This document shows positions 5,059 through 61,572 of a stretch of DNA of 64,000 nucleotides, in pieces (position 1 is the first letter of the stretch; each line of letters opens with the position of its first letter). Below the pieces are notes generated by a model. It saw only the letters and a list, made by a program, of their open reading frames with translations, was not told the DNA's origin and ran no database searches. Origin of the DNA: Vicinamibacteria bacterium (GTDB lineage: Bacteria > Acidobacteriota > Vicinamibacteria > Marinacidobacterales > Marinacidobacteraceae). The translations under genes were made by a program, and so were the position numbers. Where the stretch lies: positions 2,592,001 through 2,656,000 of the forward strand of contig OY821641.1 in assembly GCA_963555995.3 (NCBI GenBank), read 5' to 3'.

Positions 5059-5133
5059 GGTTCCCACCTACAGGTTTGCCGTGTGAACGCAGTCCCGCGG
5101 GTCCGCCAGGCGCCGTGATGGCGCCACCGGCTG

Positions 5134-5294
5134 GGAACGCCGGTCTCCAGACCGGCACAGCGGGCCGAAGGCCCGCGGACGTCGTACCGCTGTCTGCCGT
5201 GATGGACCAGGAGTCGAACCCATTCGTGCGGGGCAGCGTCGTGCCGTGCGCTGCGCTGTCGCGCAGCGCGTGCCGGTCTGAAGATCGGCGCTCC
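5134..5294. repeat. REP doublet (REPIN/MITE-like), about 160 bp
   Basis: ggaacgccggtctccagaccggca ... tgccggtctgaagatcggcgctcc; spacer is homologous to the reverse complement of 27219-27331. Confidence 0.85.
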
Positions 5295-5472: not shown

Positions 5473-6636
5473 CTACGCGGCCCAGTCACGCACCCACCCC
5501 ATCATCTCCTCCAGCGGAATCCCCAGGATCTCCGCCCCGCGACCCAGGGAAATGCGACCATCTTCCAGAGCCCTTCTCACCAGTCGGGAAAGGCAATCTG
5601 GCCTGAAGTCGTGCTCCGACAGCGCCACCGGCTCGCTGGCGCGACTCCAGTTCCACGCGAACTCACTCTCCTGGAGCGCTTCCGGCTCATCCCGCTTTCC
5701 CGGAGTCCTTCCGAAGCGACTCCGGTGCTGCGTCTGGAATCTGCCCCAGACATCGCGACTCTCGCGGTCCGTCGTGACGAGCCGGTAGAGCACGGTCCTG
5801 TAGCTGACCCGGAACGTCCGCTTCACTGCGAGAACGCGCACCAGCAGCGGGTACCCGCGAGTGGCCTCCCACTCGACGGCGAAGGCCTCCTCCGGCATCA
5901 GGAACTCGCTGGCAAAGGCGTCCGCATCGGCCTCGGCCTTCCGTGGAAGGTCGGTTTGTTCGCTCCGGAATTCCCCCGGATGGAGAAGCAGATGCCCCAG
6001 TTCGTGGGCAGCCGTGAAGATCCAGCGCTCCACCGAGATCCGGTCCCAGACGTTGACCACCACCGCCGGACCACCGTCCTCCGGCCCCACGCTCAGCCCG
6101 AAGAACGAGTCACGCTTCTTGTCCAGCAAGAGGACCTTGACGCCGCTGTCTTCGAGCAACCGGCAGATGTTGGCGACCGGCGCCCGGGACCCGAGCCCCG
6201 CCGCCCGTCGCACGGCTCTCGCGACCTCCGCGGGAGGCCTGACGCCGTTTGACGCGACCAGTTCCTGAAACCGGAACGGCTGCGTTTCGTTCAGTTCCGC
6301 CTCCAGCCAGACGTAGGCGTCCAGCCTCGCCGAGACTTCCGCGAGCGTCTGCTCTCGCCCGTACATCGTCGAGTGAGCGCGGAAGCGGGCACTCCGAAGC
6401 GGCCGCACGGGGATGACCAGATCCCGGACCGGAACCCCAAGGGCCCGCGCCAGCCCGGCGAGCGTCCCCGCGCGGGGCACAACAACGCCACGCTCGATCT
6501 TCCCGATGGCGACCCGGGACACCCCAACCTGCTCGGCGAGCGCGGCCTGGGTCAGCCGCCGGTCCAGCCGCAGCCGGGCGACGTTCGCAGCGATCGCGGT
6601 CTCTTGAGACATGGCCCCTCGCTTGACAAGCTCCAT
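5473..6636 (-). CDS. XRE-family HTH fused to ImmA/IrrE metallopeptidase
   Basis: N-terminal HTH LTQAALAEQVGVSRVAIGKIERG; FTAAHELGH zinc motif; E.DADAFASEFLMP; start may be 6612. Confidence 0.92.
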   Translation of the reverse strand: MELVKRGAMSQETAIAANVARLRLDRRLTQAALAEQVGVSRVAIGKIERGVVVPRAGTLAGLARALGVPVRDLVIPVRPLRSARFRAHSTMYGREQTLAEVSARLDAYVWLEAELNETQPFRFQELVASNGVRPPAEVARAVRRAAGLGSRAPVANICRLLEDSGVKVLLLDKKRDSFFGLSVGPEDGGPAVVVNVWDRISVERWIFTAAHELGHLLLHPGEFRSEQTDLPRKAEADADAFASEFLMPEEAFAVEWEATRGYPLLVRVLAVKRTFRVSYRTVLYRLVTTDRESRDVWGRFQTQHRSRFGRTPGKRDEPEALQESEFAWNWSRASEPVALSEHDFRPDCLSRLVRRALEDGRISLGRGAEILGIPLEEMMGWVRDWAA

Positions 6637-6667
6637 AGTTATCTTATCTACATAGCCTGTGAAAACG

Positions 6668-7810
6668 ATGCTCCATAGAGAGACTCAGAACGCCGACTAC
6701 ACTCGGGACCAGAGAGATCCCGCCGTGCCGTATCCCCAACCGACCTTCCCTCGCGCCGAGGTGGACGCCGCCGGGAGAGTCCTCACGGAGACCCCGACCG
6801 CGGACGCAACCGCGGGCGCGGCGCGACAGCGGGCAAGGGAGCTGGTGGACGACTGGCGGGCTTCCCACGCCCATCCGCTGGTCACGTTCCGCGTTCTTCT
6901 GGAGGAGCGCGCCCGCCGCATCGCCCCGGAGGCGCTGGTGGCGCAGCGGCTGAAGCGCCTCGCCTCTGTGGAAGCGAAGCTCCGCCGGTTCCCCTGGATG
7001 AAGGTCTCGCGGATGCAGGACCTCGGCGGCTGCCGGGCCATCCTCCCGTCCGTGCGGGAGGTGCGGGAACTCGTCGAGACCTGCCGACAGGGCCGCGAGG
7101 AACACGAGTTCGTCAAGGAATCCGACTACCTCGAGCAGCCGAAGCGCAACGGCTATCGCAGCGTCCATCGCGTCTATCGCTACCGCTCCCGGGCGGGCCG
7201 GAACGCGGCCTGGAACGGGCATCGGATCGAGATCCAGATCCGGTCCCGCCTGCAGCACGCCTGGGCGACTGCGGTGGAGACGGTGGACGCCCTGACCGGC
7301 ACCCGACTGAAGACGAGCGGCCCCGCGAACGGCCTCTGGGACCGCTTCTTCGCGCTCATGGGGAGCGTCTTCGCCATTGAAGAAGGGTGCCCGCCAGTGC
7401 CAGAGACTCCCGCAACGCGGTCCGAACTGCGGGATGAGGTCCGGGACCTCGTTCGGGCGCTTGACGTGGAGGGCGCGCTCTTCGGTCTGGGGAGCACCAT
7501 CCAGAATGTTCGACTGCCCGCCGACGCCGCGTGGTTCCTGATGAGCCTGGACGCCGCCGGCCGGAAGGTGTTCATCCGCAGCTACGGCCAGCGGCAGTTT
7601 TCCACCGCCCAGGCCGAGTACCTCAGGCTCGAAGCAGAGTACGAAGGCAGGCCCGGGTTCCAGGCGTGCCTCCTGTCCACGGACTCGGCGAAAGCCCTTC
7701 GGCAGGCGTATCCCAACTACTTCCTCGATGTCAGCGCGTTCTCCGAGTCGCTGAACCGGTTTCTCGACGGCCCGGACGATCGGGCCTCCGAGTACCAGCG
7801 TGCTTCCTGA
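6668..7810 (+). CDS. capRel: Small alarmone synthetase-domain protein, fused CapRel-like toxin-antitoxin
   Basis: QRLKRL.S...KL.R, MQDLGGCR, DY...PK.NGYRSVH, IEIQIRSRLQHAWATAVE; C-terminal YPNY (YxxY) motif; about 380 aa. Confidence 0.75.
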   Translation: MLHRETQNADYTRDQRDPAVPYPQPTFPRAEVDAAGRVLTETPTADATAGAARQRARELVDDWRASHAHPLVTFRVLLEERARRIAPEALVAQRLKRLASVEAKLRRFPWMKVSRMQDLGGCRAILPSVREVRELVETCRQGREEHEFVKESDYLEQPKRNGYRSVHRVYRYRSRAGRNAAWNGHRIEIQIRSRLQHAWATAVETVDALTGTRLKTSGPANGLWDRFFALMGSVFAIEEGCPPVPETPATRSELRDEVRDLVRALDVEGALFGLGSTIQNVRLPADAAWFLMSLDAAGRKVFIRSYGQRQFSTAQAEYLRLEAEYEGRPGFQACLLSTDSAKALRQAYPNYFLDVSAFSESLNRFLDGPDDRASEYQRAS

Positions 7811-7896
7811 CCCCATCTGAAGGCGCAACGCTGCTATCGAGAGCCGCTTCGAGTACAACACCACGGACCAGAACCTCCCGCCCCCCTGCTGACCCG

Positions 7897-9102
7897 ATGT
7901 TCGACACGAAAGACCAGATCCTCGACCAACTCCGCGCCGGGGAGGACAGCCGCGCCGAGTTCAAAGAAGTGCGCTTCGGGGGCCGCGGGGTGATCTCTCC
8001 CAATACCGAAGATCTGGCCGGCGAACTGGTGGCGTTCGCAAACGCCGGTGGCGGCGCGCTCTTCCTCGGTGTGGACGATTCGGGAAAAGTGCTCGGCATC
8101 CCGTCGGACCGAGTCGGCGCCACGGAACGCTGGCTGGTCAACGTGGCGACGAACAACTGTGATCCCCCGATTCGGCCGGACGTGCGCAAGGTCTGTCTTG
8201 CCGTCCCTAACGGAGATGAGCAGCCGATTCTGGTCATTCGCGTTCCCCGGGGCACCTTCGTCCACCAGACCTCGGGAGGCCGGTACTACGCACGGGTCGG
8301 CTCGACAAAACAGCGGCTCACCTCGCCGGAACTCGCGCGGCTCTTCCAGGATCGCGGCCGCGGTTACGTCTTCGACGAACAGCCGGTGTTCGCCGCCGAC
8401 GTGAACGAGCTCGACTGGGACCGCCTCGAAACATTCTTTGGTCGCTCGCCGAACATTCCGTGGCTCGACCTGCTACGCAACACCCGCGTCGTGCTGCGCG
8501 ACGAGGAGGACGCCGACCGGCCTTCGGTGGCCGGTCTGTTGACCTTCGGCAAACAGCCGACCGAGCACCTGCGGAGCGCCTGGATCGAAGCCGCCTGCTA
8601 CCGGGGAACCCGGCTTTCATCCGACGATCTGATCCACGAGGAGCGCCTCCGCGGCCCGGCCCCCGACCAGATGGACGCCGCGGTCGCCTTCGTCATGCGC
8701 TTCGGCGCCGCCGGTGACGACCCGGCCCGCCGACCGCCCTATGACATCGAGGTGGTGGACGAGGCCATCGTCAACGCCGTCGCCCACCGCGACTATTCCA
8801 TCTACGGCGCAAAGATCCGCCTCTTCCTGTTCGCCGACCGCCTGGAGCTCTACAGCCCGGGTAAGCTGCCCAACACGATGACGCTGGAGGAAATGCCCTA
8901 CCGCGTCTTCACCCGTAACCAACACCTCGTGAACTTCCTCTCCCGCATCCACAGCAAGCGCACGGGCCGGGTCTTCCTCGAATCGCGCGGCGAAGGCGTC
9001 CGTAGGATCCTTGAAGGCGGCGAAGCCCACTCCGGCCGCCGCCCCAAGTACGAACTCTTCGGCGAGGAACTCCGCCTTACCCTCTGGACCAAAGCACGGT
9101 GA
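7897..9102 (+). CDS. Schlafen/AlbA_2 domain plus HATPase_c_4 protein
   Basis: GEDSRAEFKE, VAFANAGGG.LFLGVDD, EAIVNAVAHRDYS, LELYSPGKL, RN..LVNFL, ESRGEGV. Confidence 0.88.
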   Translation: MFDTKDQILDQLRAGEDSRAEFKEVRFGGRGVISPNTEDLAGELVAFANAGGGALFLGVDDSGKVLGIPSDRVGATERWLVNVATNNCDPPIRPDVRKVCLAVPNGDEQPILVIRVPRGTFVHQTSGGRYYARVGSTKQRLTSPELARLFQDRGRGYVFDEQPVFAADVNELDWDRLETFFGRSPNIPWLDLLRNTRVVLRDEEDADRPSVAGLLTFGKQPTEHLRSAWIEAACYRGTRLSSDDLIHEERLRGPAPDQMDAAVAFVMRFGAAGDDPARRPPYDIEVVDEAIVNAVAHRDYSIYGAKIRLFLFADRLELYSPGKLPNTMTLEEMPYRVFTRNQHLVNFLSRIHSKRTGRVFLESRGEGVRRILEGGEAHSGRRPKYELFGEELRLTLWTKAR

Positions 9103-9271
9103 ACGCAGGTTGCGGACCGAAAGGGTACCGTCTGTCGCATTGTGGATCACGAGACAATTCAGAGGACAGTGTTCCACCCAACGCTACCGTAGGGCCGGAT
9201 AGGCGGTAGTAACCGGACGGTATCGCTTCGAAGTCGTGCAGGTGTGCGTCACCGAGACTCAAACGGGATAG

Positions 9272-11479
9272 ATGGGCTGGGGCGGAATGCATCGCGACGG
9301 GAAGGAAAACCGATTGCACTGCATGTGGCGTCGCGTCACGGAGATACTGGGGTCCCCTTGGCGCTGGTGGCGGAACCGAAAAGGACGCGCAGCGGGCCAG
9401 ATGCCGGCGGTGCTCGGCGATGGTTTGGGCGGAGCGAATTGGGACCGGCATCCAGTACCAACAAGCTCGGAGACTGCACCGCCCACAGCGGAACCAACCG
9501 AGGCAGAACCAAGTAACACGGCGCAGGAGAACGACACCGACCCACTACCGACTCCCGATAAGGATCGCGCCGGGGGCGAACCAATCTCGCACGGAATTGC
9601 TGAGAGGGAGCGCGACAGCGAAGCGTCGCGACGACCGCGGTCGCGCGGGGGCGAACGCGGGCGGGAGCATCGGGGCAAGGATCCTGCTGACGGGGAGACT
9701 GTGTGGCATCCGTCGGCAACAAAGGAGGGACAGGTAGAGATCGTGTGCCGTGAGCACGAAGGGCGGTGGGAGCTAGCGGTCGTGCCGCGTCGCGGCGTGG
9801 TGGTGCGCGGCACCGATGGGCAGCTGGCGTCAGCGAACGGCGAATTCGTTCCGGCATCCTTTCGCAGCGAGGTCTATATCGAGAACGTCGCAGGAGGAGA
9901 GCGCCGACTCCTGCCGCTGTATACGGACAAACCAATGGTCTTCCAAGTCGGCACGGACTGGCGGGGTCCGGGCCGCAAAGTGCGCGGAGTCGGTGTCGGC
10001 CACTTCGTGGCGATCGTGCCCATGGAGTGGACCCGTTGGGGAAGCGCGCCGGTGAAGCCGGAACCATGTGCGGATGCGGGTTTCTGCGCGCACTACTTCC
10101 ACGGGGCTCGAGGGGACGCACCGAAGGCCGAAGGGTTCGAAGAATTCGGCGCCGTGTCGACCTCGGTCATCGAACTTGTCGGTCGGCGGGTCTTCGACGA
10201 CTCGGATCAGGGCGAGCTGTACGTGGGGCATGTACCGGAGCTAAACGCGCCAGGCATGGCGTGGGCACATGTGGGCGAGGAGGGTCGAAAAGGCTGGCGC
10301 GAAACCTATCGCCTGGACAGCGGACAAACGCTCGCCGATGTCGTCGGGGATCGCCAAGGGTGGTTCTTTGTACGCGTGTACCGCGAGGGCGAAATAGTGC
10401 AGGCGGACAGCGTCCAGTTCCGATACCTCGCGAGTCTGCGGGAGATCCGCATCGACGGGAGGCCGTACACGGCCGACACGCTCTTGACTCCGGGGCCGCG
10501 AGGCCACGGAACGTCGCGGATCGATTTCGTCGGATCAACCAAAGCCCGCGTCCGCATCGAGGGAACGGTGACGAGCGGACTGAGTGTGGCGCCCGGTGGC
10601 ACGTCGGTCGCGTGTGCCCCGCACCCAGAGCTGGGGGAGTTGCAGTTTCGGTTGACCGATGGCCACGGAGCGGTGGATGTTGTGATCGACCTGCCGCGGG
10701 TGTGGTGGCGGCTGGAGCGCGCGGGACAGGCGCTGGCCTCCTGGAGGGACCGATCCGATACCGTGACTAGGAACGAGTACCGAGCGCTGGCGCTCGACGG
10801 GTTTGCGGTAACGGTAAGGGTGCCGGCACGGGCCGCCCCGGTCGGGTTCGGCTTCGACGAGGAAGGTCGAGTGGGGTACCCGGGCAGGCGGGAGGGACGG
10901 CGCGCGTTGTGCGTCGTGTCGCTCCGGGATTTCGCGGACCACGAGGAGATCGACCGGCGGTTGTTCCGGGATGCCGTCTTTGGCGCGCGCTGCGGGGAGG
11001 CCATAGTGGACCTCATGAAGGTGGCCGCCGACCCGTTACCCAAGATCGCTGAATTCACAGTCGCGCCTGCTCGCGCGCGGGTGGGGGAGACGGTGGCCGT
11101 ACTCTGGAGGATCGAGAACTGCGAAGGCGTCGAAGTCTCACTGGAGCCGGACGTCGGTCCGGTGGCTGCCGAGGGCCGGTACAAAATCCGAATGGACCGA
11201 CGGACGCGGGTGGCCCTGCGGCTCGTCGCACCCGGGATGAACGACCTCGTGCGCGAGTTCTTCGTCGACTTGGAGCCACCCGCGGCGTCCTTGGAGCAAC
11301 AGCCCATAGCGCGCGCAAGGCGAGCCGGGAGCTGGCGTCGCGCGAAGGGATTCAGCCCCGGGGAGATGGCGGAGGCCGCGGGCTCAGTGCGACTATCGGT
11401 AAGGCGCGACCGGCGCCGCAGAAGCGCGCACGCGATCAACATCGCGTCACTTGAGGACTGGATGAATGCACAACGCTGA
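9272..11479 (+). CDS. Uncharacterised helicase partner: beta-rich/Ig-like domains plus C-terminal ribosomal protein L13e-like domain
   Basis: 735 aa; Ig-like PKIAEFTVAP...GETVAVLWRIENC..V.LEPDVGPV; C-terminal RRAKGFSPGEMAEA...DRRRRSAHAINIASL; overlaps the helicase start by 14 nt; start uncertain. Confidence 0.75.
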   Translation: MGWGGMHRDGKENRLHCMWRRVTEILGSPWRWWRNRKGRAAGQMPAVLGDGLGGANWDRHPVPTSSETAPPTAEPTEAEPSNTAQENDTDPLPTPDKDRAGGEPISHGIAERERDSEASRRPRSRGGERGREHRGKDPADGETVWHPSATKEGQVEIVCREHEGRWELAVVPRRGVVVRGTDGQLASANGEFVPASFRSEVYIENVAGGERRLLPLYTDKPMVFQVGTDWRGPGRKVRGVGVGHFVAIVPMEWTRWGSAPVKPEPCADAGFCAHYFHGARGDAPKAEGFEEFGAVSTSVIELVGRRVFDDSDQGELYVGHVPELNAPGMAWAHVGEEGRKGWRETYRLDSGQTLADVVGDRQGWFFVRVYREGEIVQADSVQFRYLASLREIRIDGRPYTADTLLTPGPRGHGTSRIDFVGSTKARVRIEGTVTSGLSVAPGGTSVACAPHPELGELQFRLTDGHGAVDVVIDLPRVWWRLERAGQALASWRDRSDTVTRNEYRALALDGFAVTVRVPARAAPVGFGFDEEGRVGYPGRREGRRALCVVSLRDFADHEEIDRRLFRDAVFGARCGEAIVDLMKVAADPLPKIAEFTVAPARARVGETVAVLWRIENCEGVEVSLEPDVGPVAAEGRYKIRMDRRTRVALRLVAPGMNDLVREFFVDLEPPAASLEQQPIARARRAGSWRRAKGFSPGEMAEAAGSVRLSVRRDRRRRSAHAINIASLEDWMNAQR

Positions 11480-14400
11480 AGAGCTGAGCGGCTGGACGGA
11501 GACCATCCGACAGCGTTATCGGAACTATTTGCGGACATCGTTCTTCTTCAAGGAACCCGCGCTGCGAACCTCGTTCGCAGTGGCGCTAGAGCAGGAGGCG
11601 GAGCTGCTGAAGGGACCGTTTCCGGAACCGGGACGGTTGTTCGCCCGTGGCGTGAGCGCGCCGGAGCTCGCGCAGGAATACCTCGGTAGTGAGTGCGACG
11701 GGTTGCGTCCGGCACTGCTTGACAATCCCTTGTACACGCACCAAGAGCGGGCTGTACGAATGACCTTCGGCGAAGCGCGCAACGTTGTGGTGGCCACCGG
11801 GACGGCGAGTGGCAAAACGGAGAGCTTCCTGTATCCGATCCTGTTCGAGTTGTACCGGCAGCATCTGGCCGGGCAGCTTGCGGTGCCGGGTGTTCGCGCC
11901 TTGGTGCTCTATCCGATGAACGCGCTCGCGAACGATCAACGGGAGCGTCTGCGGAAAATCTGCCGCACGCTAGAACACCACGGTTCGGATTTCATACCGA
12001 CGTTTGGGCAGTACATCGGCGAGACCCCCTACATTGCGCCGGCCGACGTGGCCGAGGAGGCTGCCCGTGGTGAACTGCTAGGCCGTGAGCAGATGCGGCA
12101 GACACCGCCACACATCCTCTTGACGAACTACTCGATGCTGGAATACCTGCTGATGCGGCCGGACGATAGTCCGCTGTTCGAGAACAGCAGCCAGTGGCAG
12201 TTCATGGTGCTTGACGAGGCTCACCAGTACCGGGGCGCGAAAGGCATGGAGATGGGGATGCTGCTGCGGCGCCTCAAACAACGCCTGCGCGACGGCGGGC
12301 GGGCGGACGCGTTCCGCTGCATCGCAACGAGTGCCACGATGAGTTCGGGGGAGGGCGGCAAAGAGCGCCAAGCGGTCGCGGACTTCGCGACGGCTCTGTT
12401 CGGCGAACCGTTCGAAATGGACGGCGTAATCTTCGGGGAACTGGACGCAACAGATCGCCCCATGGCCACTGCGGGGCGCTACCACGCGTTTCTGCGGGCC
12501 TTGGAGGGCGCCTTCTTGGTCCATCGTGGTGGCAGGGACGTAGTGGTTTTGAACCGCAGCGGTGGGGAGGCACCAGCGGGGCCTCCCGTGCCGCTCGAGA
12601 TCGCGCTCTGCAGGGAATGTGGGCAGCACTACTATGTGGGTCGCGAGCGCGGCGGGCGGCTCGCGGAAGGAATTCGGGATCCCAGCCACGAGTCGTTCGG
12701 CGTCGAGTACTTCCTGCCGACGGACTACGCGGCCACACACTGGCTCTGTCGCCGCTGCGGGGCGCTGTCCGGCGGCGGGCCTACGTGCGATTGCGACGCA
12801 GGCACGGGGGTGAAGCACTGCGAGGCACATCCGGACCGGCCGGACCAGTTGCGCGAATGCGCTGTGTGCGGCTACCAGCGGGGTAGTCTGGGCGATCCCG
12901 TCCAAGAGATCGTGCACGGGTCAGACGGGCCGAACGCAGTGATCGCCACGGCGCTCCACGAAGTGCTGCCAGCAGAGCGCCGCAAGGTGTTGGCGTTCGC
13001 GGACAGCCGGCAGGAAGCCGCGTTCTTCGCCTGGTACGCGGAGGACTCATACAAGAAGCTCCGCGATCGCAACCTCATGCTTCGGGCGCTCCGCTCGAGT
13101 CCCATCGATGTCGAAGGGTTGTCGGTGGACGACCTGGCGACACGGTTGGCACGGCAATGGGACGCAGCCGGTCTCCTGAAGGAATCCGACACTCAGGAGA
13201 CACGCAAGCGCGCGGTCCTTGGGTCGATCTTTGCAGAGGCGCTCACCGAAGAGCGGCGCCTTTCATTGGCGGGCGTAGGGCTCGTGAAATGGACGGTGAG
13301 AATCCCAGCAGATGTCTTATTGCCCGCTATCGTGCATGCGACGCCGTGGCGCTTGAGCGATTTCGAGGCGCGGGAACTGATCGGCTTCCTGCTGGAACAG
13401 ATGCGCACGCGGCGTGCTCTCGCGCTGCCGGAGGGACCGGGAGCGCCGGACTGGGCCGATGTGACGCCGTGGGCGACCCAGGCGTTCGCACCCGGCCCAC
13501 CCGGACGCCGAAAGGGCGTGGTGCAATGGGGCGGACCGCAATCGGCCGTCGTCACGCACTATCTCGCCAGGCTGCTCGGTGCCGAGGTTTTCGAGGAGCA
13601 GCGCCCGCAAACGTCTCAGGCGCTGATGCGGGCGCTGTGGCAGGCACTCCGGGACCGGGATCGCGCCCACCGTTCGGACGAACAGCTGTTGTGGGGTGGC
13701 CAGGGCAGGTGGAACGGGACGTTCCGGATTAGCCCACACTGGCTGCGGGTCCAGCTGGCCGACGCAGCCGACATCTGGGAATGTGACACGTGCGCAGGGC
13801 TGAGCGCACACCGCGTGCGCGGCATCTGTCCCCGCAACGGATGCCCCGGAACGCTTGGCTCGGTAGACGAGGGGCGATTAGGTCAGAACCACTATCGGAT
13901 TCTCTACGAGAGCGACGAACTTCCCGCCGAATTGGTGGCGGAAGAGCACACCGCGCAGATCGAAAGCGGTGAGGCGCGGCGCCGTCAACGGGATTTCAAG
14001 GATGGATCGACACACTTGCTCAGCTCGTCGACGACGTTTGAGGTAGGTGTCGACCTCGGCGATCTGGACGTGGTATTCCTGCGAAACGTCCCGCCCGAGC
14101 CATTCAACTACACACAACGCGTGGGGCGTGCCGGGCGCCGGGACAGGCCCGGGCTCGCGCTGACGTACTGCCGGCGGAACCCGCACGACCTGTACCACTA
14201 CGGCGACCCCGAGGAGCGGGTGATCAGGGGCAAAGTGGAGCCACCCAGGCTCCGGATGACGAATGAGAGGATCATCGTACGGCACATGGTTGCCGCGTCG
14301 CTTGCGGCCTTTTTCAAGGCTGACGACAACCGCGGCCGGTTCAAGAATGTGGAGGCGTTCGTGGGGGACTGGTCGGCACCTCGGAGCGTGTCGGACGTAA

Positions 14401-15677
14401 GGAGCTTTTGCACCGGCAACGCGGCGCTTGGGAAGGCGCTGCGTCGCATCGTTCCTGATGAGATGCACGACGCGGTCGGTCTGTCCTCGGACGGCTGGGT
14501 GAGGCGCGTCTGCGGGCCCGCGAGCCGCTTCGCGCAAGTTGAAGCGGAGGTAGTTTCTGACTACCAACGCATGGAAGACTTGCGACTGGCGCTATTCCAG
14601 AAGCGGGAGAGCACGGGTCGGGTCGAGGCTCGGATCAGGACGGTACGCCGTGAATCGACCCTGACTTTCCTGTCGCGCAAGGCGGTGATCCCGAAATACG
14701 GCTTTCCGGTGGATGTCGTAGAACTGGACACGCACTCGGAGGACGGGCGCGTGGCCCTGCAACGGGATCTGTCGCAGGCGATCGCGGAGTACGCACCAGG
14801 GGGGCGCGTTGTTGCGAACAAGCGCGAGTGGTCGTCGTACGGGCTGAAGATGGTAGCTGGGAAGGCGTGGCCCGTGCGGTCCTACGCGTACGACGACGCA
14901 CGGAGTTTCCGGCAGTGGCACGAGGGCGATCCGTCAGCGCCGCCTGATGCCCGCCGATATGTGATCCCGGAATGGGGGTTCGTGACCCAGTGGTCGAAAC
15001 AACCGCCACGGCCGCAGGGCCGCGCGCGGCGCTTCTACACTACCCGGCCGTTCTTCCGGGGCTTCGGCCGCGTGGATCGGCCGACCACGCGCGTCGTTCG
15101 CGGCGTGGAGGTGACGCAGGCGCAACCCGGGACGCTCGTGATTCTCTGCGAAGGGAGGAACCGGTCGGGTTTCTACATCTGCGGCATGTGCGGCGCGCAT
15201 GCCACGGCGCGAAAGAGGGCACATCGGACACCTGCGAACATCGCTTGCCAAGGTTCGATGGGCTGGTTCTCGCTCGGCCATGAACTCGTAACCGACGTGG
15301 TGCGCCTGAAGTTTCCGGGAGTCGGAGACGAGTGGCACGCATACTCGGTCGGGTATGCCGTGCTCCTGGGCGCCGCGGAGACGCTCGGCGTGCCCAACAC
15401 GGACTTGAACGTGACGATTGCAAGGGCTGAAGATCCAGGCACGTCCGCCATCGTGCTCTACGACGCGGTGCCGGGTGGGGCCGGACTGGTCGCGCAACTC
15501 GAGCGTGACGACGTGTTTTCACGCGTGCTGGTGCTCGCCCGTCAGCGCGTGGACGGCGACTGTGGTTGCGATTCAAGCTGTTACGGTTGCCTACGCAGCT
15601 ACCGGAATCAGTTCGCGCATCCGTACCTCCACCGGATGCGCGCGGCGGAGACGCTGGACGCGCTAAGAGGGCCGTGA
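11466..15677 (+). CDS. DEAH-box helicase with Zn ribbons and C-terminal DUF1998 (YprA family, DruE-like)
   Basis: LYTHQ, TGTASGKT, YPMNALANDQ, TNYSMLEY, DEAH, TSAT, LAFADSRQEAA, TFEVGVDLG, QRVGRAGR, YDAVPGGAG, CGCDSSCYGCL. Confidence 0.92.
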   Translation: MHNAEELSGWTETIRQRYRNYLRTSFFFKEPALRTSFAVALEQEAELLKGPFPEPGRLFARGVSAPELAQEYLGSECDGLRPALLDNPLYTHQERAVRMTFGEARNVVVATGTASGKTESFLYPILFELYRQHLAGQLAVPGVRALVLYPMNALANDQRERLRKICRTLEHHGSDFIPTFGQYIGETPYIAPADVAEEAARGELLGREQMRQTPPHILLTNYSMLEYLLMRPDDSPLFENSSQWQFMVLDEAHQYRGAKGMEMGMLLRRLKQRLRDGGRADAFRCIATSATMSSGEGGKERQAVADFATALFGEPFEMDGVIFGELDATDRPMATAGRYHAFLRALEGAFLVHRGGRDVVVLNRSGGEAPAGPPVPLEIALCRECGQHYYVGRERGGRLAEGIRDPSHESFGVEYFLPTDYAATHWLCRRCGALSGGGPTCDCDAGTGVKHCEAHPDRPDQLRECAVCGYQRGSLGDPVQEIVHGSDGPNAVIATALHEVLPAERRKVLAFADSRQEAAFFAWYAEDSYKKLRDRNLMLRALRSSPIDVEGLSVDDLATRLARQWDAAGLLKESDTQETRKRAVLGSIFAEALTEERRLSLAGVGLVKWTVRIPADVLLPAIVHATPWRLSDFEARELIGFLLEQMRTRRALALPEGPGAPDWADVTPWATQAFAPGPPGRRKGVVQWGGPQSAVVTHYLARLLGAEVFEEQRPQTSQALMRALWQALRDRDRAHRSDEQLLWGGQGRWNGTFRISPHWLRVQLADAADIWECDTCAGLSAHRVRGICPRNGCPGTLGSVDEGRLGQNHYRILYESDELPAELVAEEHTAQIESGEARRRQRDFKDGSTHLLSSSTTFEVGVDLGDLDVVFLRNVPPEPFNYTQRVGRAGRRDRPGLALTYCRRNPHDLYHYGDPEERVIRGKVEPPRLRMTNERIIVRHMVAASLAAFFKADDNRGRFKNVEAFVGDWSAPRSVSDVRSFCTGNAALGKALRRIVPDEMHDAVGLSSDGWVRRVCGPASRFAQVEAEVVSDYQRMEDLRLALFQKRESTGRVEARIRTVRRESTLTFLSRKAVIPKYGFPVDVVELDTHSEDGRVALQRDLSQAIAEYAPGGRVVANKREWSSYGLKMVAGKAWPVRSYAYDDARSFRQWHEGDPSAPPDARRYVIPEWGFVTQWSKQPPRPQGRARRFYTTRPFFRGFGRVDRPTTRVVRGVEVTQAQPGTLVILCEGRNRSGFYICGMCGAHATARKRAHRTPANIACQGSMGWFSLGHELVTDVVRLKFPGVGDEWHAYSVGYAVLLGAAETLGVPNTDLNVTIARAEDPGTSAIVLYDAVPGGAGLVAQLERDDVFSRVLVLARQRVDGDCGCDSSCYGCLRSYRNQFAHPYLHRMRAAETLDALRGP

Positions 15678-15820
15678 GGTCTGCGGTGCGGCGACCGCCA
15701 AGAATGCCGAGGTCCGGCTCGAGGGCCGTCCGGACTCCAACGTTTTTCGGAGTGGGCGGACACGGGGTCATATGCCGCGTATCGGAGCGACCAGAGTCGT
15801 AACGGAGGTTGAGATCGGAC

Positions 15821-16663
15821 GTGAAGAAGCAACTTGGGTACAGCGAGTTCTCCTTCGGGTACGCCTTCACGGAGAACTTGGTGCGGTCGTCGGCGGCGGG
15901 TCCGCCGGCCGCACCGCGTTTTCCAAACCTGCAAGAGGAGGGACAGCTTGGCTATGACGTGCAGTTGACGGCGGGAGGAGTTCCGTTGTTCCTGCAGTTC
16001 AAGCTGCCGGAACGGATGGTGCGCACGACGGCGGCCGAGATTTCGAAGTACGGCCTCAATCGGAGTGGTCTGTCAACACCGTTCTTTCGGTTGTATCTGA
16101 TGAAGAGGAACGTGTCCCGGCAGCACGAGCTGCTGATCGAAATAGAACAGAAGGAGCCTGGAAGCGTCTTCTACGCAATGCCCCACCTGGTTGGACCGCG
16201 AGAATTCAGCACGGCCTACGCCGCTATGGCCGTGCATCGACACTCCGTGCTGTTTTCTCCCTGTGATATCGGTCCGTTGCGAGACGATGCGCAGCACACA
16301 GTTGCGTACGACCCGAGGTCGCGCGGCGCGTGGTTTTGTTCGGAGCCGAAACTCATTGAAGCCCACGATGTCGTGTCGGTGCTTGCGGAGAGGGGCCGGG
16401 CGGCGAGTGAGCAGGTGACAGGTGGTTTGGCAGCCGTGGCGCGAGCGATTTCCGGACGGATTCTGTCGACGAGACCCGGTGAGCTTGACGACGTAGCAGC
16501 TGCGGCGCGGGAACGGCGGCGGCGCATCGTCGCGGATTCGCGGCAGCGCGACGAGGCAGAGGAAGCCGTTGAGGAGCTGTTCATCGCACGAGAGTTAGCC
16601 CGCATCGGACTAGGTGTGGAGTTGCTGATCGCGCAGCCCCGCCCTGCGACGGCGACGAGGTGA
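15821..16663 (+). CDS. Putative PD-(D/E)xK restriction-like nuclease
   Basis: SEFSFGYAF...EEGQLGYDV...PLFLQFKL, a D...QxK active-site pattern. Confidence 0.62.
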   Translation: MKKQLGYSEFSFGYAFTENLVRSSAAGPPAAPRFPNLQEEGQLGYDVQLTAGGVPLFLQFKLPERMVRTTAAEISKYGLNRSGLSTPFFRLYLMKRNVSRQHELLIEIEQKEPGSVFYAMPHLVGPREFSTAYAAMAVHRHSVLFSPCDIGPLRDDAQHTVAYDPRSRGAWFCSEPKLIEAHDVVSVLAERGRAASEQVTGGLAAVARAISGRILSTRPGELDDVAAAARERRRRIVADSRQRDEAEEAVEELFIARELARIGLGVELLIAQPRPATATR

Positions 16664-55944: not shown

Positions 55945-58900
55945 ATGGCCCGTGAGTACCCCGACGCGCTCCCAGCGGGCTATCGGCTCGAGGAATTCAA
56001 GATCGTCCGCGTGCTCGGCCAAGGAGGCTTCGCGATCACCTATCTGGCGAAGGACAACTACCGGGATCAGGAGGTGGCCCTCAAGGAGTATTTCCCGGCC
56101 GGCAACGCCATGCGAACCGGCGGGACGCGTGTGGAGCCGACGCCGGGCGCCCGCGAGGTCTTCGACTGGGGATACCGACGCTTTCTCGATGAGGCGCGAG
56201 CGCAATCGAAGTTCCGCCATCCCAACATCCCGGTGCTCCATCGGTATTTCCGCGCCAACGGCACGGCCTATGTCGCCATGGATTACATCAAGGGACCTTC
56301 CCTTTCGGATCTTCTCGCTGATCGCGGCAGTCTCTCCGTGAACCAGTGGCGTCCATGGCTGGATCGTCTGCTCGACGCACTGGAACACGTACATGGCCAC
56401 GACTACCTGCACCGAGATATCACGCCTCGCAACATTTTGATCCGAGAGTCTGACAACCAGCCGGTTCTTATTGATTTCGGGGCCGCCCGGGTCGCTGGCG
56501 GCGACAAGACCCGAACGGTGGTCTTGACCAAGGCCTACGCCCCGCCAGAGCAAGGTTCAGCCCGCGCGAAGCAGGGACCCTACACGGACATCTATGCACT
56601 CGGAGCAGTGTCGTACTGCGTGCTCACCGGTGAGCTGCCAGCCACCCCGTCTGACCGGGCTGCTGGGGAGGAGCATGAGCCCCTCGCACAGCAACTGGAA
56701 GAGGCTTTCGACTGGGTCGTTGCCGTGGACCGGGCGCTCTGTCTGCGGCCGAAGGACCGTCCACAGAAAACCGCCGCGTGGCGGAAGGAACTGCACGAAG
56801 CAGCCGCGAAGATGTGGTTGTCGGGCGAGCCCGATCAGATAGCGGCCCGGGATGCCGAAGGACTGACGCCCCTCCACCGCGCCGCCGCGGCAGAGCCGGT
56901 TCCCGGCGTCGTGGCGACCTTGCTCGAACTCGGTGCCGACATCCACGCTGTGGCGGGAAGGGACGACGTCGTTCTCTTTGAAAGGCACGGCGACACGCCG
57001 CTACACCGGGCTGCGGCGGCCAATCCGAATCCGGACATAACGGCGGTTCTGCTAGACCGCGGTGCCGACGTTCGGGCGCAGGACCTGATAGGTGAACAGC
57101 CTCTCCACCACGCAGCGAGGCACAACTCCAATGCGAAAGAGATCGCTCTGCTGCTCGACCGCGGTGCCGACATCCACGCCAAGGACGACTCTGGTAGCGC
57201 GCCTCTACACGCGGCCGCCGAGGCCAATTCCCATCCAGGCGTGCTGACGCTCCTGCTTGACCGCGGCGCCGATATCCACGTCAGAAACCGGGATGGAGAA
57301 ACGCCGTTGCACCACGCTGGGGAGAACCCACACGCCGACGTCGTGACCCTTCTCCTCGACTTTGGCGCCGACCTGCACGCGCGGGATGCCAACGGGAATA
57401 CGCCGCTCCATGTCACGGCGTGGCATAACAGAAATCCGGAAACATTCAGGCTCCTGTTGAATCGCGGTGGCGACCTGCAGGCACGGAACAGTTCCGGCGC
57501 TACGCCCCTCCACTGCGCGGTGCGAGGGAGTCAGAGCAGCGAAGTGTTGGCCCTTCTTCTCGACCAGGGCGCCGACCCTCACGCAGTTGACGGCGAGGGG
57601 CGGACAGCCCTGCACTGGGCCGCATCGGAAGACGCCATGGAGACGGTGCAACTGCTCATTGAGCGCGGCGCGGACATCGAGGCGAAAGACTCCGATGGAC
57701 GTCGCCCGCTCCATCTCGCGGCGTCTGAGGACGCCTCCAGCGCGGCCGAATTGCTCCTCAGTCGCGACGCGTGCGTCCGAGCACGCGACCAAGGCGGGTG
57801 TACTCCACTTCACCGGGCCGCGGGCCGGGATTGCCTGCGGGTCTCACAACTGCTGCTCGACAACGGCGCAGACGTGGGAGGGCGGACTCCGACCGATACC
57901 CGAAACTGGACCTCGAAGCTGGATCTTGGTCGAGCGGCAGGTGAGGAGTTGGAGACGCTATGGTGGTTGGCCTTCGACAGCTACGATCCGACCACCAAGG
58001 TTCCGATCTCGATACATGACCCAGACTGGGCGCTGTGGTTCCTGGCATGTGACAACCACTGCGACATCACCGGCTGGGCAGAGACAACGCCTCTACACAC
58101 GGCGGCGCGAACCAATGGCCAGCGTGTGACCGCGCTGCTCCTTGACCGCGGCGCCGATCCAGCGGCCAGAGATTCCACCGGAAGGACACCGCTTCACGTG
58201 GCGGCCCTGAACAACGCCGTGGATGCCGCGAGACTTCTGATTCAGTCGTCTCCGCGCAGCTTGGGCGTCAAGGACACCGCCGGCAGGACACCGCTGCACT
58301 TTGCCGCCTGGGGCGATGCCAGAGAGACGGCGGAACTACTCCTCCGCCATCGTGCCGAGATCAAGTGCAGCGAGGAGACACGCGCCAAGACTTGGTTCTG
58401 GAAGGAGAGCCGCAGGCCCGCCGACATTGTGTGCCTCTTGCTCAGTGGTCCATTCGGCGAACCGGGAAGCGGCTGCCGCGAAGACGCGAAAGCGGTAAAG
58501 GGCTGGCACGACCTTCGGATGCTCACGGAACGACTCCTGCACAAGGGCCATACACCGTTGCATTGGGCTGCGTTCGGTGACTCTCGGGACGTAGCCGAAC
58601 TGCTTCTCGATAAAGGTGTGAATGTCCATGGAGGTGCGGATGACGGAATGACGCCCTTGGACCTGGCAGCGCTCGGCGACGCCTTGATCACCGCACGGCT
58701 GCTCATAGATTGCGGAGCGGATGTCTGCGGTCGGAAAGGTCATGCCACGCCACTGCATTGGGCCGCGCTTGGAAACAGCCGCGAAACTCTGGCACTACTG
58801 TTGGAACGCGGTGCTGATGTCGCAGTGGATATCGGTACAGCGAAGTCCGAAGGAATGACCGCTCTTTTCTGGGCGGTACTCGGAAAGGCTTCCCACGCTG

Positions 58901-61572
58901 CGGAGTTACTTCTGGAACACGGAGCAGAGCTCGGACAGGCCGTGGGTTATGGCCTCGTGTCGCGCCCCTGGATGGACTGGAAGGACGCGCGCGAGGGTGT
59001 TGAGGCACTCAGCGAGGAGTCGAATTCCACGCTGCTTCACTGGGCAGCACTGCGCGATGCCACGGACGTCGTGGACATGTTGCTTGACCGCGGCCTCGAT
59101 CCGGAGGCGGAAGACGCCGAGGGCCGGACGCCGCTGGACTACGCCGCCCAAGGTAACGCCGTCGGTGCGTTGGAGCGTCTTCTGGATCGCGGGGCCGACA
59201 CGAGTGGCAGTCGACGGACGAGCGGCACACCACTTCACAGCGCGTCCCGCGCCGATGCAGTGGACGCCGCGCATCTGTTACTGGAACGTGGATCGGATGT
59301 GCAGGCCGGCGAATCCGACATCGGCACGCCGCTCCACATGGTCCGTTCGACGGAGCTCGCGTCGCTTCTCCTCGATAGTGGGGCCGACGTTGACGCGCGA
59401 GACTCCAACGGAAGCACTCCACTTCACAGCGCCAACGGCAACCGAGCCGTCGCCGAGCAACTGCTTGAACGGGGTGCCGACATCGAAGCGACTGAAGGCT
59501 CTGGAAATACGCCGCTGCACCATGCCGCCGGGGCAGAGAAAGGAAGTGATGTTGCGGAAATCCTGCTCGATCGTGGCGCATCCATCAATGTACCGAACCA
59601 CAACGGAAATACCCCTCTGCACCTAGCCGCATCCGAGACCGGACACAACGATGCCGGAAAGGCGACTGTACTTTGCCTACTCAGGCGGGGTGCTGATGTC
59701 GACCTCGTCAACGCGGATGGCAAGACGCCGCTGATGGTTGCCATCGAAGGGTCCGAAGACTGGGAGGACGTGGTTCGGGATGTGGCAGCATGCTTCCTTG
59801 ACCACGGAGCGGACATCAATGCCCGTGACACACGTGGAAGTACGCCGCTCCACCTGGCGGCTCGATGTCGGTATTCGTCGGTGAGTGAGGAACTGACCTC
59901 GCTGCTCCTTGAGCGTGGTGCCGCCGTTGACGCTGCAGACAACGACGGTCGTACGGCGCTCCATGTTGCTGCAGGCACAGGGCATTCGCGGGTGTCGGCC
60001 GAGCTAATCCGTCGCGGAGCCGACGTCCACGCCCGGACGAAAGAGGGGGAGACGCCGCTGTACAGTGCCGCCGATGGAGCGGCGTGGGGACGATCCGCTG
60101 AGGCTGTGGAACTCCTTCTGGATGAGGAGGCGATGGTTCACGCGAGAACGGAGGACTGCTGGACCCCTCTTCACGCGGCGGCAAGTAGCGGAGCGAAGGA
60201 AGCAGTTGAACTGCTCCTGGATCGCGGAGCGGACTGCCAGAGCCAGACGCGATCCGGCGAGACGCCACTGCATCTGGCGGCGTATCTGCATCTTGTCCAG
60301 GAGTCGGACAATTCGCCCCCGACCGTCAGCAGGCAGCAACTCGAAGTTGTGCAACTGCTCTCGCGTGGGGGTTGCGAGTGGAATGTGAAGGATGAGAGTG
60401 GAGATACGCCACTGAGGTGCTATGTGAGGCAGTGGTGGAGATACAGGAATCGCATGCCCGACGGCCTTGACGGCATCGAATTCGTCCGGCGTTGCGGTGT
60501 GGATGATTCCGCCTTAGTCAATGCCGCCGTCGAGGACCTCGTTCGAGTAGCACCCGAGATGCGTAGCCGATCACTATCTGGCGATCCCGAGAACGCGTCC
60601 GAATCTCTGGACACCCGCACTTACGAGGATTCCAAGGCCACTGTTGATTTTCTTCTCGATCGCGGCGCCGACGTGAATGTACTCAACGCAGCCGGGCGCG
60701 CGCCGATCCACATCGCGGCGGCGGCGGGCGTACCGTCCGTCGTCGAATTCCTTCTGGACCGAGATGCGGAGGTCAACCGCCCCGATGCAAGCGGAAACAC
60801 GCCGCTTCACTCTTGGGCTGAGCAAGTCCTCCTGGATCGCGGTGCTGACGTGATGGCGCGCAATGCGGACGGCGAAACCCCGCTGCACTCGGCAGCGGGT
60901 CGTGATGACTATGTAGCGGCGGAGTTCCTGCTTCGCCATGGTGCAGATGTTGACGCGAGGGACAAGAACGCCGCGACGCCCCTGCATCGGGCCGCTTTCG
61001 AGAATTCGACGAGTGTCGCGGAACAGCTACTGGATCAGGGTGCCGACATCGCGGCCGAAGACCAGAGCGCTGAGACTCCGTTGCACGCCGCGATCCGCGG
61101 TGGCGCCTGGGAAACAGTCGAATTCCTACTGGAACGCGGGGCGGACCCGCAGTCCATCGAGGAGTACGAGTCGGAGGGTCTGGTGGAGACTGGGGCGTCG
61201 ATCGAGGACCGCATCTGTGCCGGGAAGATGCTCCGGATCAAGCGAATCGAGGAGGGCCTGTTTGATGCGCTATGGGAGGGGCTGGACGAACTCTCCCGCC
61301 GCAAGGGATGGGATGAAGGTATGCGCGTCTTTCGGCGGTTACATGAGTGTGTGGAAGACTGGGGCAGTGCGCGATACATGTTCGACTACCCAGAGGAGAA
61401 TCGCGGATTCGGCGCAAGTCTTGAAGGGCTGCTCCGGGAAGAGGGTGAGGAAGGACCGCTGATGCGCCAGCTTCGAGACAAAGCCGACTTCGAATGGCTC
61501 CGCGATCTGGTGTGGGAGCTCAGAGACGGCACGTTGCTGGACCCAGAGCGGTGGGTTGAACGGATGGACTGA
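55945..61572 (+). CDS. Ser/Thr protein kinase with about 35 ankyrin repeats
   Basis: LGQGGFA, VALKEYFP, HRDITPRN, DFG, YAPPE; repeated GxTPLHxAA...LLDRGAD. Confidence 0.93.
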   Translation: MAREYPDALPAGYRLEEFKIVRVLGQGGFAITYLAKDNYRDQEVALKEYFPAGNAMRTGGTRVEPTPGAREVFDWGYRRFLDEARAQSKFRHPNIPVLHRYFRANGTAYVAMDYIKGPSLSDLLADRGSLSVNQWRPWLDRLLDALEHVHGHDYLHRDITPRNILIRESDNQPVLIDFGAARVAGGDKTRTVVLTKAYAPPEQGSARAKQGPYTDIYALGAVSYCVLTGELPATPSDRAAGEEHEPLAQQLEEAFDWVVAVDRALCLRPKDRPQKTAAWRKELHEAAAKMWLSGEPDQIAARDAEGLTPLHRAAAAEPVPGVVATLLELGADIHAVAGRDDVVLFERHGDTPLHRAAAANPNPDITAVLLDRGADVRAQDLIGEQPLHHAARHNSNAKEIALLLDRGADIHAKDDSGSAPLHAAAEANSHPGVLTLLLDRGADIHVRNRDGETPLHHAGENPHADVVTLLLDFGADLHARDANGNTPLHVTAWHNRNPETFRLLLNRGGDLQARNSSGATPLHCAVRGSQSSEVLALLLDQGADPHAVDGEGRTALHWAASEDAMETVQLLIERGADIEAKDSDGRRPLHLAASEDASSAAELLLSRDACVRARDQGGCTPLHRAAGRDCLRVSQLLLDNGADVGGRTPTDTRNWTSKLDLGRAAGEELETLWWLAFDSYDPTTKVPISIHDPDWALWFLACDNHCDITGWAETTPLHTAARTNGQRVTALLLDRGADPAARDSTGRTPLHVAALNNAVDAARLLIQSSPRSLGVKDTAGRTPLHFAAWGDARETAELLLRHRAEIKCSEETRAKTWFWKESRRPADIVCLLLSGPFGEPGSGCREDAKAVKGWHDLRMLTERLLHKGHTPLHWAAFGDSRDVAELLLDKGVNVHGGADDGMTPLDLAALGDALITARLLIDCGADVCGRKGHATPLHWAALGNSRETLALLLERGADVAVDIGTAKSEGMTALFWAVLGKASHAAELLLEHGAELGQAVGYGLVSRPWMDWKDAREGVEALSEESNSTLLHWAALRDATDVVDMLLDRGLDPEAEDAEGRTPLDYAAQGNAVGALERLLDRGADTSGSRRTSGTPLHSASRADAVDAAHLLLERGSDVQAGESDIGTPLHMVRSTELASLLLDSGADVDARDSNGSTPLHSANGNRAVAEQLLERGADIEATEGSGNTPLHHAAGAEKGSDVAEILLDRGASINVPNHNGNTPLHLAASETGHNDAGKATVLCLLRRGADVDLVNADGKTPLMVAIEGSEDWEDVVRDVAACFLDHGADINARDTRGSTPLHLAARCRYSSVSEELTSLLLERGAAVDAADNDGRTALHVAAGTGHSRVSAELIRRGADVHARTKEGETPLYSAADGAAWGRSAEAVELLLDEEAMVHARTEDCWTPLHAAASSGAKEAVELLLDRGADCQSQTRSGETPLHLAAYLHLVQESDNSPPTVSRQQLEVVQLLSRGGCEWNVKDESGDTPLRCYVRQWWRYRNRMPDGLDGIEFVRRCGVDDSALVNAAVEDLVRVAPEMRSRSLSGDPENASESLDTRTYEDSKATVDFLLDRGADVNVLNAAGRAPIHIAAAAGVPSVVEFLLDRDAEVNRPDASGNTPLHSWAEQVLLDRGADVMARNADGETPLHSAAGRDDYVAAEFLLRHGADVDARDKNAATPLHRAAFENSTSVAEQLLDQGADIAAEDQSAETPLHAAIRGGAWETVEFLLERGADPQSIEEYESEGLVETGASIEDRICAGKMLRIKRIEEGLFDALWEGLDELSRRKGWDEGMRVFRRLHECVEDWGSARYMFDYPEENRGFGASLEGLLREEGEEGPLMRQLRDKADFEWLRDLVWELRDGTLLDPERWVERMD

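Follow-up and report, generated by a model that had tools for sequence, protein, structure and literature searches.

The question raised by this locus is why a bacterial protein encoded directly upstream of a helicase ends in what resembles the core of eL13, a ribosomal protein of archaea and eukaryotes that, to our knowledge, bacterial ribosomes lack. The gene, referred to here as the partner gene, lies at positions 9272 to 11479 (plus strand) of the 64,000-nucleotide stretch that was analyzed (the window; contig OY821641.1 of assembly GCA_963555995.3, positions 2,592,001 to 2,656,000, Vicinamibacteria bacterium). From the first ATG it encodes 735 amino acids, comprising a low-complexity, variable N terminus, a core of immunoglobulin (Ig)-like domains, and a 60-amino-acid eL13-derived tail (11297 to 11476). 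The tail is a genuine homologue of the eL13 core and is under purifying selection, the partner gene and the helicase gene are coupled as a two-gene module, and in related modules the tail has repeatedly been replaced by other domains.

A preliminary description of this DNA had placed an L13e-like domain at the end of the protein, and the peptide that it quoted was exact and in frame, starting at nucleotide 11300 (residue 677 of 735). The tail is basic, with 14 lysine or arginine residues versus 6 aspartate or glutamate residues in the last 65 amino acids. The sole family matched was NCBIfam NF008914, the archaeal 50S L13e (E = 3.1e-6 for the last 81 amino acids and 1.8e-4 for the whole protein), with 26.7 bits, which is below the 96-bit equivalog cut-off. 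No member of the family passes this cut-off (best, 58.2 of 96 bits); homology places the tail in the eL13 family, but it does not represent a ribosomal L13e gene. The suggested check against Pfam Ribosomal_L13e (PF01294) failed for the window copy, because a Pfam scan of the partner returned no match at E ≤ 0.1, and phmmer searches with the tail alone found two eL13 chains at just E = 0.66 to 0.78. The window sequence by itself is thus a weak case, and the homology was settled by the clear matches of relatives: NF008914 was matched by 33 of 35 homologues (best, 3.8e-13) and by 29 of 38 genome loci (best, 4.7e-16), and PF01294 was matched by 25 of these 38 loci, with the gathering score reached by 8. 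All 118 short matches of the tail search were L13e or pieces of the partner family. IcmE/DotG, which headed the list of PDB matches, was rejected as an artefact in which many weak decapeptide-repeat matches had been summed (best single E of ∼1).

The tail is also kept in homologues. The positions that are invariant in archaeal L13e (G-F-S, E, D, R, and N; n = 113) were 94 to 100% retained in 64 bacterial tails, and the window copy holds the R, G-F-S, E, D, R-R, S, N, and L of the eL13 core, with A replacing the first G of G-x-G-F-S and a four-residue deletion that is common to its subclade. Fold matches of a model of the isolated tail were weak. Archaeal eL13 (NF008914, PF01294; chain 9e6q_AH of the Pyrobaculum calidifontis 50S subunit) is a stand-alone ribosomal gene, whereas here the domain is fused at the end of a bacterial protein of 560 to 1,350 amino acids. 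All bacterial tails fell on one side of a branch with a Shimodaira-Hasegawa-like approximate likelihood ratio test (SH-aLRT) support of 98, with archaeal L13e on the opposite side, consistent with the earlier proposal that the domain was co-opted. This tree, built on 63 columns with L021 (insertion) and nine rows lacking a tail match excluded, did not resolve the eL13 donor or join the tails to the Thaumarchaeota sequences sampled. The ratio of nonsynonymous to synonymous substitution rates (dN/dS) of the tail was close to the body's own (about 0.15 to 0.55 in closer pairs and near 0.9 in one recent pair). Of 469 pairs, 347 were more identical in the tail than in the body, and the eL13 tail changes at roughly the slow pace of the body while being less constrained than the helicase. 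There was no second eL13 copy in the window genome, and none of 14 control genomes had a match. Stand-alone L13e proteins with a C-terminal HHH_5 fusion were also encountered (P0333 and P0336; 127 to 129 amino acids).

The fusion in the window is not an assembly artefact, because it is intact in single contigs, including that of a diverged relative from a separate study. Runs X1 and X2, which belong to the same study and may be the source of the assembly, each have nucleotides 9200 to 12200 whole and with no differences on a single contig, and one sponge-metagenome contig from another study covers 9624 to 12200 with 144 differences; an assembly chimera was therefore rejected. The 735-amino-acid open reading frame (ORF) had no match to its body in Pfam, NCBIfam, or PADLOC, and a search of the ESM Atlas gave no usable match. 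The database version of the protein (P0003) starts at nucleotide 9782 and has 565 amino acids. The conserved core (9782 to 11026, plus strand) is predicted to form a chain of Ig-like beta-sandwich domains, as indicated by an AlphaFold2 model (mean predicted local distance difference test score, 82.3), fold searches, and invariant columns. Foldseek and VIA searches with the core model returned Ig-domain arrays at low template modeling scores, from libraries that showed no DruH structure. The model and these searches suggest that the partner is an Ig-like-domain protein, as the partners in Druantia III are. The last Ig/PKD-like domain (11033 to 11278, plus strand; model residues 418 to 499) is optional and is missing in many relatives, in which the tail directly follows the core.

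The downstream gene (11466 to 15677, plus strand) overlaps the 3′ end of the partner gene by 14 nucleotides and encodes a DruE/YprA-type superfamily 2 (SF2) helicase of 1,403 amino acids with Walker A, DEAH, Helicase_C, and MZB (DUF1998) elements. Pfam matches were DEAD (4.7e-19) and MZB (2.9e-12), and the best PADLOC matches were DruE1 (8.1e-144) and DruE3 (1.6e-134). No C-terminal phospholipase D (PLD) nuclease domain was detected in the window copy or in relatives; the window helicase stops ∼30 amino acids or less past MZB, and full-length relatives stop no more than 25 amino acids past the match. The 30 aligned helicases were 58 to 74% identical to that of the window, with Walker A and DEAH intact. 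Of 47 loci (the window and 46 fetched ones), 44 have the helicase downstream of the partner, which confirms the coupling to a DUF1998 helicase that was also part of the preliminary description. The three loci without a helicase were one at a contig end, one with a broken partner, and L002. Any other real neighbor gene was present in at most 4 of the 47 loci, and no third gene of the module was found. The 284-amino-acid ORF that follows the helicase in the window (15809 to 16663, plus strand) is absent from the other loci and had no Pfam, NCBIfam, or PADLOC match; it has what we take by eye to be a PD-(D/E)xK-like motif.

In a core tree of 232 family proteins, 189 end in eL13, across ten phyla, six are cut or broken, and the remainder carry other tails. 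A minimum of 24 changes of tail type was required on this tree (FastTree; many weak forks). The substitutes included uS17 (P0036, 7e-31), bS6 (P0303, 6.6e-25), the omega subunit of RNA polymerase (L017, 3.2e-11), uS5 (P0221, L050/L051, and L053 to L058), a helix-hairpin-helix domain, presumably NusA-like (P0289, 0.0068), and MacB_PCD (P0277). The uS17 and bS6 fusions and the uS5 fusion of P0221, which represents a separate gain of uS5 on the core tree, are known as proteins only. Further tails appeared by eye to be helix-turn-helix (HTH)-like, Zn-ribbon-like, or nameless, some of them short and unstructured, and a nameless helical basic tail of ∼90 amino acids is common to P0194, P0246, P0252, P0268, and L035 at several positions in the tree. 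Folds that bind RNA or DNA make up most of the identified substitutes (uS5, bS6, uS17, and HTH-like). In the taxonomic family of the window, all six relatives carry a uS5 tail, and none carries eL13. Degenerate uS5 tails, with 38 to 57% identity to the L054 copy, are still in frame but could hardly join a ribosome.

Other members have been altered in other ways. The eL13 tail is interrupted in P0197 and P0269 by an SH3-like-looking domain of ∼70 amino acids and in L021 by a duplicated piece of its own core. A near-complete sigma-70 (RpoD/MzaA-like) is fused to the N terminus in L034 (7316-11386), L036 (7328-11374), P0329, P0330, P0332, P0334, P0335, and P0337; in these sigma-70-fused members the eL13 tail has diverged and its basic D-x-R-R-R cluster has been lost. 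The deepest relatives, L071 and L072, carry helical tails, and their helicases have 100 to 110 more amino acids after RecA1. With these two outgroups as the guide, the eL13 tail appears to be ancestral in the main clade but not in the wider family.

Several replacements can be traced to the host chromosome. On the contig that carries the omega tail (L017:11520-11924), another copy lies at a distance of 733 kb (G001:C10:1175988-1176266) and is 100% identical over 93 amino acids. The shared DNA (304 of 311 nucleotides identical) extends from ∼10 nucleotides 5′ of the start codon to ∼10 nucleotides 3′ of the stop codon, and the fusion is an in-frame copy of the whole coding sequence of the host rpoZ. 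All four coding differences between the copies are silent, with a chance expectation of ∼0.003 (23% of possible changes are silent, and either copy may have changed). Because the 3′ half of the former eL13 tail is still readable behind the new omega stop codon (E = 8e-6), omega must have taken the place of eL13 recently. Close to its start, the helicase gene just downstream appears to carry a frameshift within a run of T residues, possibly an assembly error.

The uS5 tails provide a second case. The tail of L055 is 87.7% identical to the rpsE gene of its own host over 519 nucleotides, versus 79 to 81% for four others, and groups with that gene with support of 99/97. A single origin for four uS5 tails was rejected (approximately unbiased test, P = 0.024; one long branch). 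Comparison of fused uS5 with the genes of the hosts gave dN/dS values of 0.12 and 0.05, which an unsampled donor would mimic. Native rpsE was retained in all five genomes searched. For the HTH-like tail of L008 and L013, a stand-alone paralogue (38 to 48% identity) was found in both Dehalococcoidia host genomes and in none of three others searched, and a faint eL13 remnant lies past the tail in L008. The source family of this tail (L077:1435-1887 and L078:1378-1914) is a conserved Dehalococcoidia protein of 150 to 180 amino acids with a winged-HTH-like end; it had no Pfam family, and we assume that it may be RNA polymerase delta-like. Host sources of the tails of L003 and L035 were not found with the queries used in these incomplete genomes.

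The closest guide to function is Druantia III; statements on this and other known systems follow the accessible text of the cited sources. DruE is a 3′-5′ helicase that acts on intermediates containing single-stranded DNA (ssDNA) (10.64898/2026.05.12.722862; 10.64898/2026.05.13.724313; 10.64898/2026.05.13.724758). DruH has six Ig-like domains flanked by helical ends, with ssDNA at the interface of Ig5 and the C-terminal domain (10.64898/2026.05.12.722862), and its C-terminal domain touches DruE on forked DNA (10.64898/2026.05.13.724313), but it has alternatively been interpreted as a scaffold (10.64898/2026.05.13.724758). The role of DruH-like partners, as exonuclease, ssDNA sensor, or scaffold, is thus contested among these 2026 preprints. 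Partner and helicase of a mycobacterial pair interact in two-hybrid tests (PMC13316683). The nearest system, the compact III-B or “type III-like” branch (10.1101/2025.09.15.676423; 10.64898/2026.05.13.724758), likewise has two genes, with an Ig partner upstream of an overlapping YprA/MrfA helicase with MZB. That branch mostly has no nuclease (10.1101/2025.09.15.676423), and both its helicase and that of the window are without PLD.

The window module shares with Druantia III the single partner gene upstream, and with DruE the YprA-type SF2 architecture with MZB/DUF1998. It differs from Druantia III-A, in which DruE has a C-terminal PLD nuclease, and its helicase lacks the BrxA-like helical insert that follows RecA1 in ARMADA, BRIGADE, TALON, and Druantia. 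The window helicase is ∼100 to 110 amino acids short at this location; the spacer after RecA1 was 48 to 51 amino acids in all 28 helicases measured versus 147 to 161 in three deeper relatives, L070 to L072, and the sequences suggest a secondary loss. The partner is shorter than DruH (∼1,100 amino acids), has no detectable similarity to DruH or DruF models, and is missing the helical N- and C-terminal domains of DruH (the proposed nuclease site and DruE contact); a small foreign domain at the end of the Ig chain stands in place of the DruH C-terminal domain. PADLOC Dru partner models matched none of 35 family members and none of 11 further proteins, but these models are narrow, because a DruH-like control from L070 was unmatched too. 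A profile comparison of the partner with this DruH-like plasmid protein gave a probability of 0.04%. By analogy, the module may work like a compact Druantia III.

Two other groups of systems offer partial parallels. TALON/TOTE systems also place an archaeo-eukaryotic information-processing protein, the TATA-binding protein (TBP), beside a YprA-like helicase (10.1101/2025.09.15.676423), but with separate TBP, TPR-CSD, and NERD genes, whereas the present module has two genes and a fused, swappable tail. MzaA of MZA and defense fusions with sigma-70 or the C-terminal domain (CTD) of RNA polymerase alpha use transcription-machinery domains too (PglW has an alpha-CTD-like domain [PMC12839542]), and L034 and L036 match the MzaA and RpoD models. 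However, neither ribosomal-protein domains nor recapture of host genes is described for such fusions in the accessible text.

The reading that we prefer, although with no better than even confidence, is that the tail is an exchangeable, eL13-derived module that grips RNA or ssDNA and aims the system. Nucleic acid binding is the simplest trait common to eL13, uS5, uS17, bS6, and HTH, and the ssDNA site at the Ig5/C-terminal interface of DruH (10.64898/2026.05.12.722862) counts in the same direction. The Ig-domain partner would, as in Druantia III, be the sensor or loader for a 3′-5′ helicase that unwinds phage replication intermediates, and the tail is predicted to bring the helicase onto exposed ssDNA or RNA-containing structures of the invader. 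A single old transfer of archaeal L13e may have filled the place of the helical C-terminal domain of deeper relatives, after which lineages could have re-aimed the system by fusing whole small basic host proteins (uS5, uS17, bS6, and winged HTH), already in the chromosome and pre-shaped for RNA or DNA binding. It seems unlikely that the tail docks the helicase, because unrelated tails accompany closely related helicases. The omega tail and the copying of the host's own genes weigh against a nucleic-acid-gripping tail, and fit better with a tether or a decoy.

A tentative alternative that takes in both of these is a capture slot, with which the partner repeatedly fuses subunits of the host ribosome or RNA polymerase (once archaeal), docking on the expression machinery or serving as bait for its attackers, coupled to the helicase. 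The tether form, which we consider unlikely, holds that the tail anchors partner and helicase to the ribosome or RNA polymerase, so that the system travels with gene expression and encounters invader DNA as it is newly transcribed: omega, uS5, uS17, bS6, and the sigma-70 fusions would be built into host machines, and the eL13 core would sit on a conserved 23S rRNA site. Nearly all named tails are parts of the expression machinery, as are the RpoD fusions at the N termini of L034, L036, and six more proteins. The unchanged omega protein and the kinship of the L055 tail with its host's rpsE are what compatibility with host machines requires. However, eL13, the tail of most members, has no place in a bacterial ribosome, several uS5 tails have strongly diverged, and native rpsE persists beside the fusions.

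The decoy form, less probable still, proposes that the tail mimics a host protein targeted by phage take-over factors, that binding of the factor activates the helicase, and that housekeeping genes are copied again and again as bait. Integrated domains in plant nucleotide-binding leucine-rich repeat receptors are a parallel. The exact rpoZ capture with half of the displaced eL13 past the stop codon, the independent uS5 captures, the purifying selection on fused uS5, the stand-alone paralogue of the HTH tail in both genomes with that tail, and a tail that changed at least 24 times would all be expected of bait. Against it, eL13, which is both the most frequent and the oldest tail, offers phages no bacterial counterpart to target, two other tails lack a host source in the incomplete genomes searched, and characterized Druantia III systems respond to DNA structure in the accessible accounts. 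That the tail is dispensable or structural, with the gene end a recombination sink for abundant short genes and eL13 a stabilizing cap or a feature linked to the helicase start, is improbable, because although tails are many and unrelated (MacB_PCD and short unstructured ones included), eL13 tolerates insertions, and the helicase start lies in the last codons of the tail, the surface arginines and G-F-S are conserved over ten phyla, dN/dS is far under 1 in most pairs, and captures are in-frame, complete coding sequences.

The preliminary description had also placed the gene in a defense island, and the setting is island-like, with PADLOC-matching and other defense-type neighbors. Positions 5473 to 9102 hold an HTH plus M78 peptidase gene (RmrA/IrrE-like, minus strand), a RelA/SpoT-domain gene (PADLOC PDC-S33, 3.9e-106), and a Schlafen AlbA_2 plus HATPase_c_4 gene, which are likely to be further defense genes. 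The stretch with the module has a GC content of 62 to 69% versus 70% for the genome. Within the order, 8 of 55 genomes had the module, and within the genus, 3 of 16; with a stricter filter, 9 of 401 genomes of the class had it. Because of this patchy occurrence, the lower-GC stretch, and the RelA/SpoT, HTH-M78, and Schlafen neighbors, a role in antiphage defense is predicted. Across bacteria, the 38 genome loci represent ten named phyla, several with record names that we take to be those of sponge symbionts, and a profile search with the partner retrieved 969 clusters at E ≤ 1e-30, some unrelated Ig-repeat proteins (e.g., P0162) included. Viral contigs yielded no copy of the module (0 of 18 candidate stretches), and phage records had no match. 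Elsewhere in the window are an element with five identical copies in the genome (1 to 854), an intergenic repeat of ∼165 nucleotides with dozens of copies at 80 to 93% identity (5127 to 5294), and a 1,875-amino-acid Ser/Thr kinase with ankyrin repeats (55945 to 61572, plus strand; PADLOC PDC-M72A, Ankyrin, and PD-T4-6).

The preliminary description is thus partly supported, being correct on homology and linkage; it had no way to show that the tails are interchangeable or that some are recent copies from the host chromosome. No eL13 domain in a bacterial defense protein was described in the main texts of the literature searched, although supplements, e.g., that of 10.1101/2025.09.15.676423, may list the clade; “ribosom” is absent from the main texts of the Druantia/YprA papers searched and “L13” from PMC13639185. 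One family member from Chloroflexota (P0208, 759 amino acids) is called “ribosomal protein L13e” by NCBI, an automatic misannotation that is a warning to annotators. The family is a clear example of nonribosomal use, in bacteria of ten phyla, of a ribosomal-protein core of the archaeal/eukaryotic type, and it provides a natural series of tail swaps on one helicase (eL13, uS5, uS17, bS6, omega, and HTH) with dated captures from host chromosomes. This compact system, with a defined variable end of 60 residues, allows direct tests of what aims such helicases. If the capture slot proves true, it would be a prokaryotic analogue of integrated decoys or of expression-coupled defense, with gene capture in progress.
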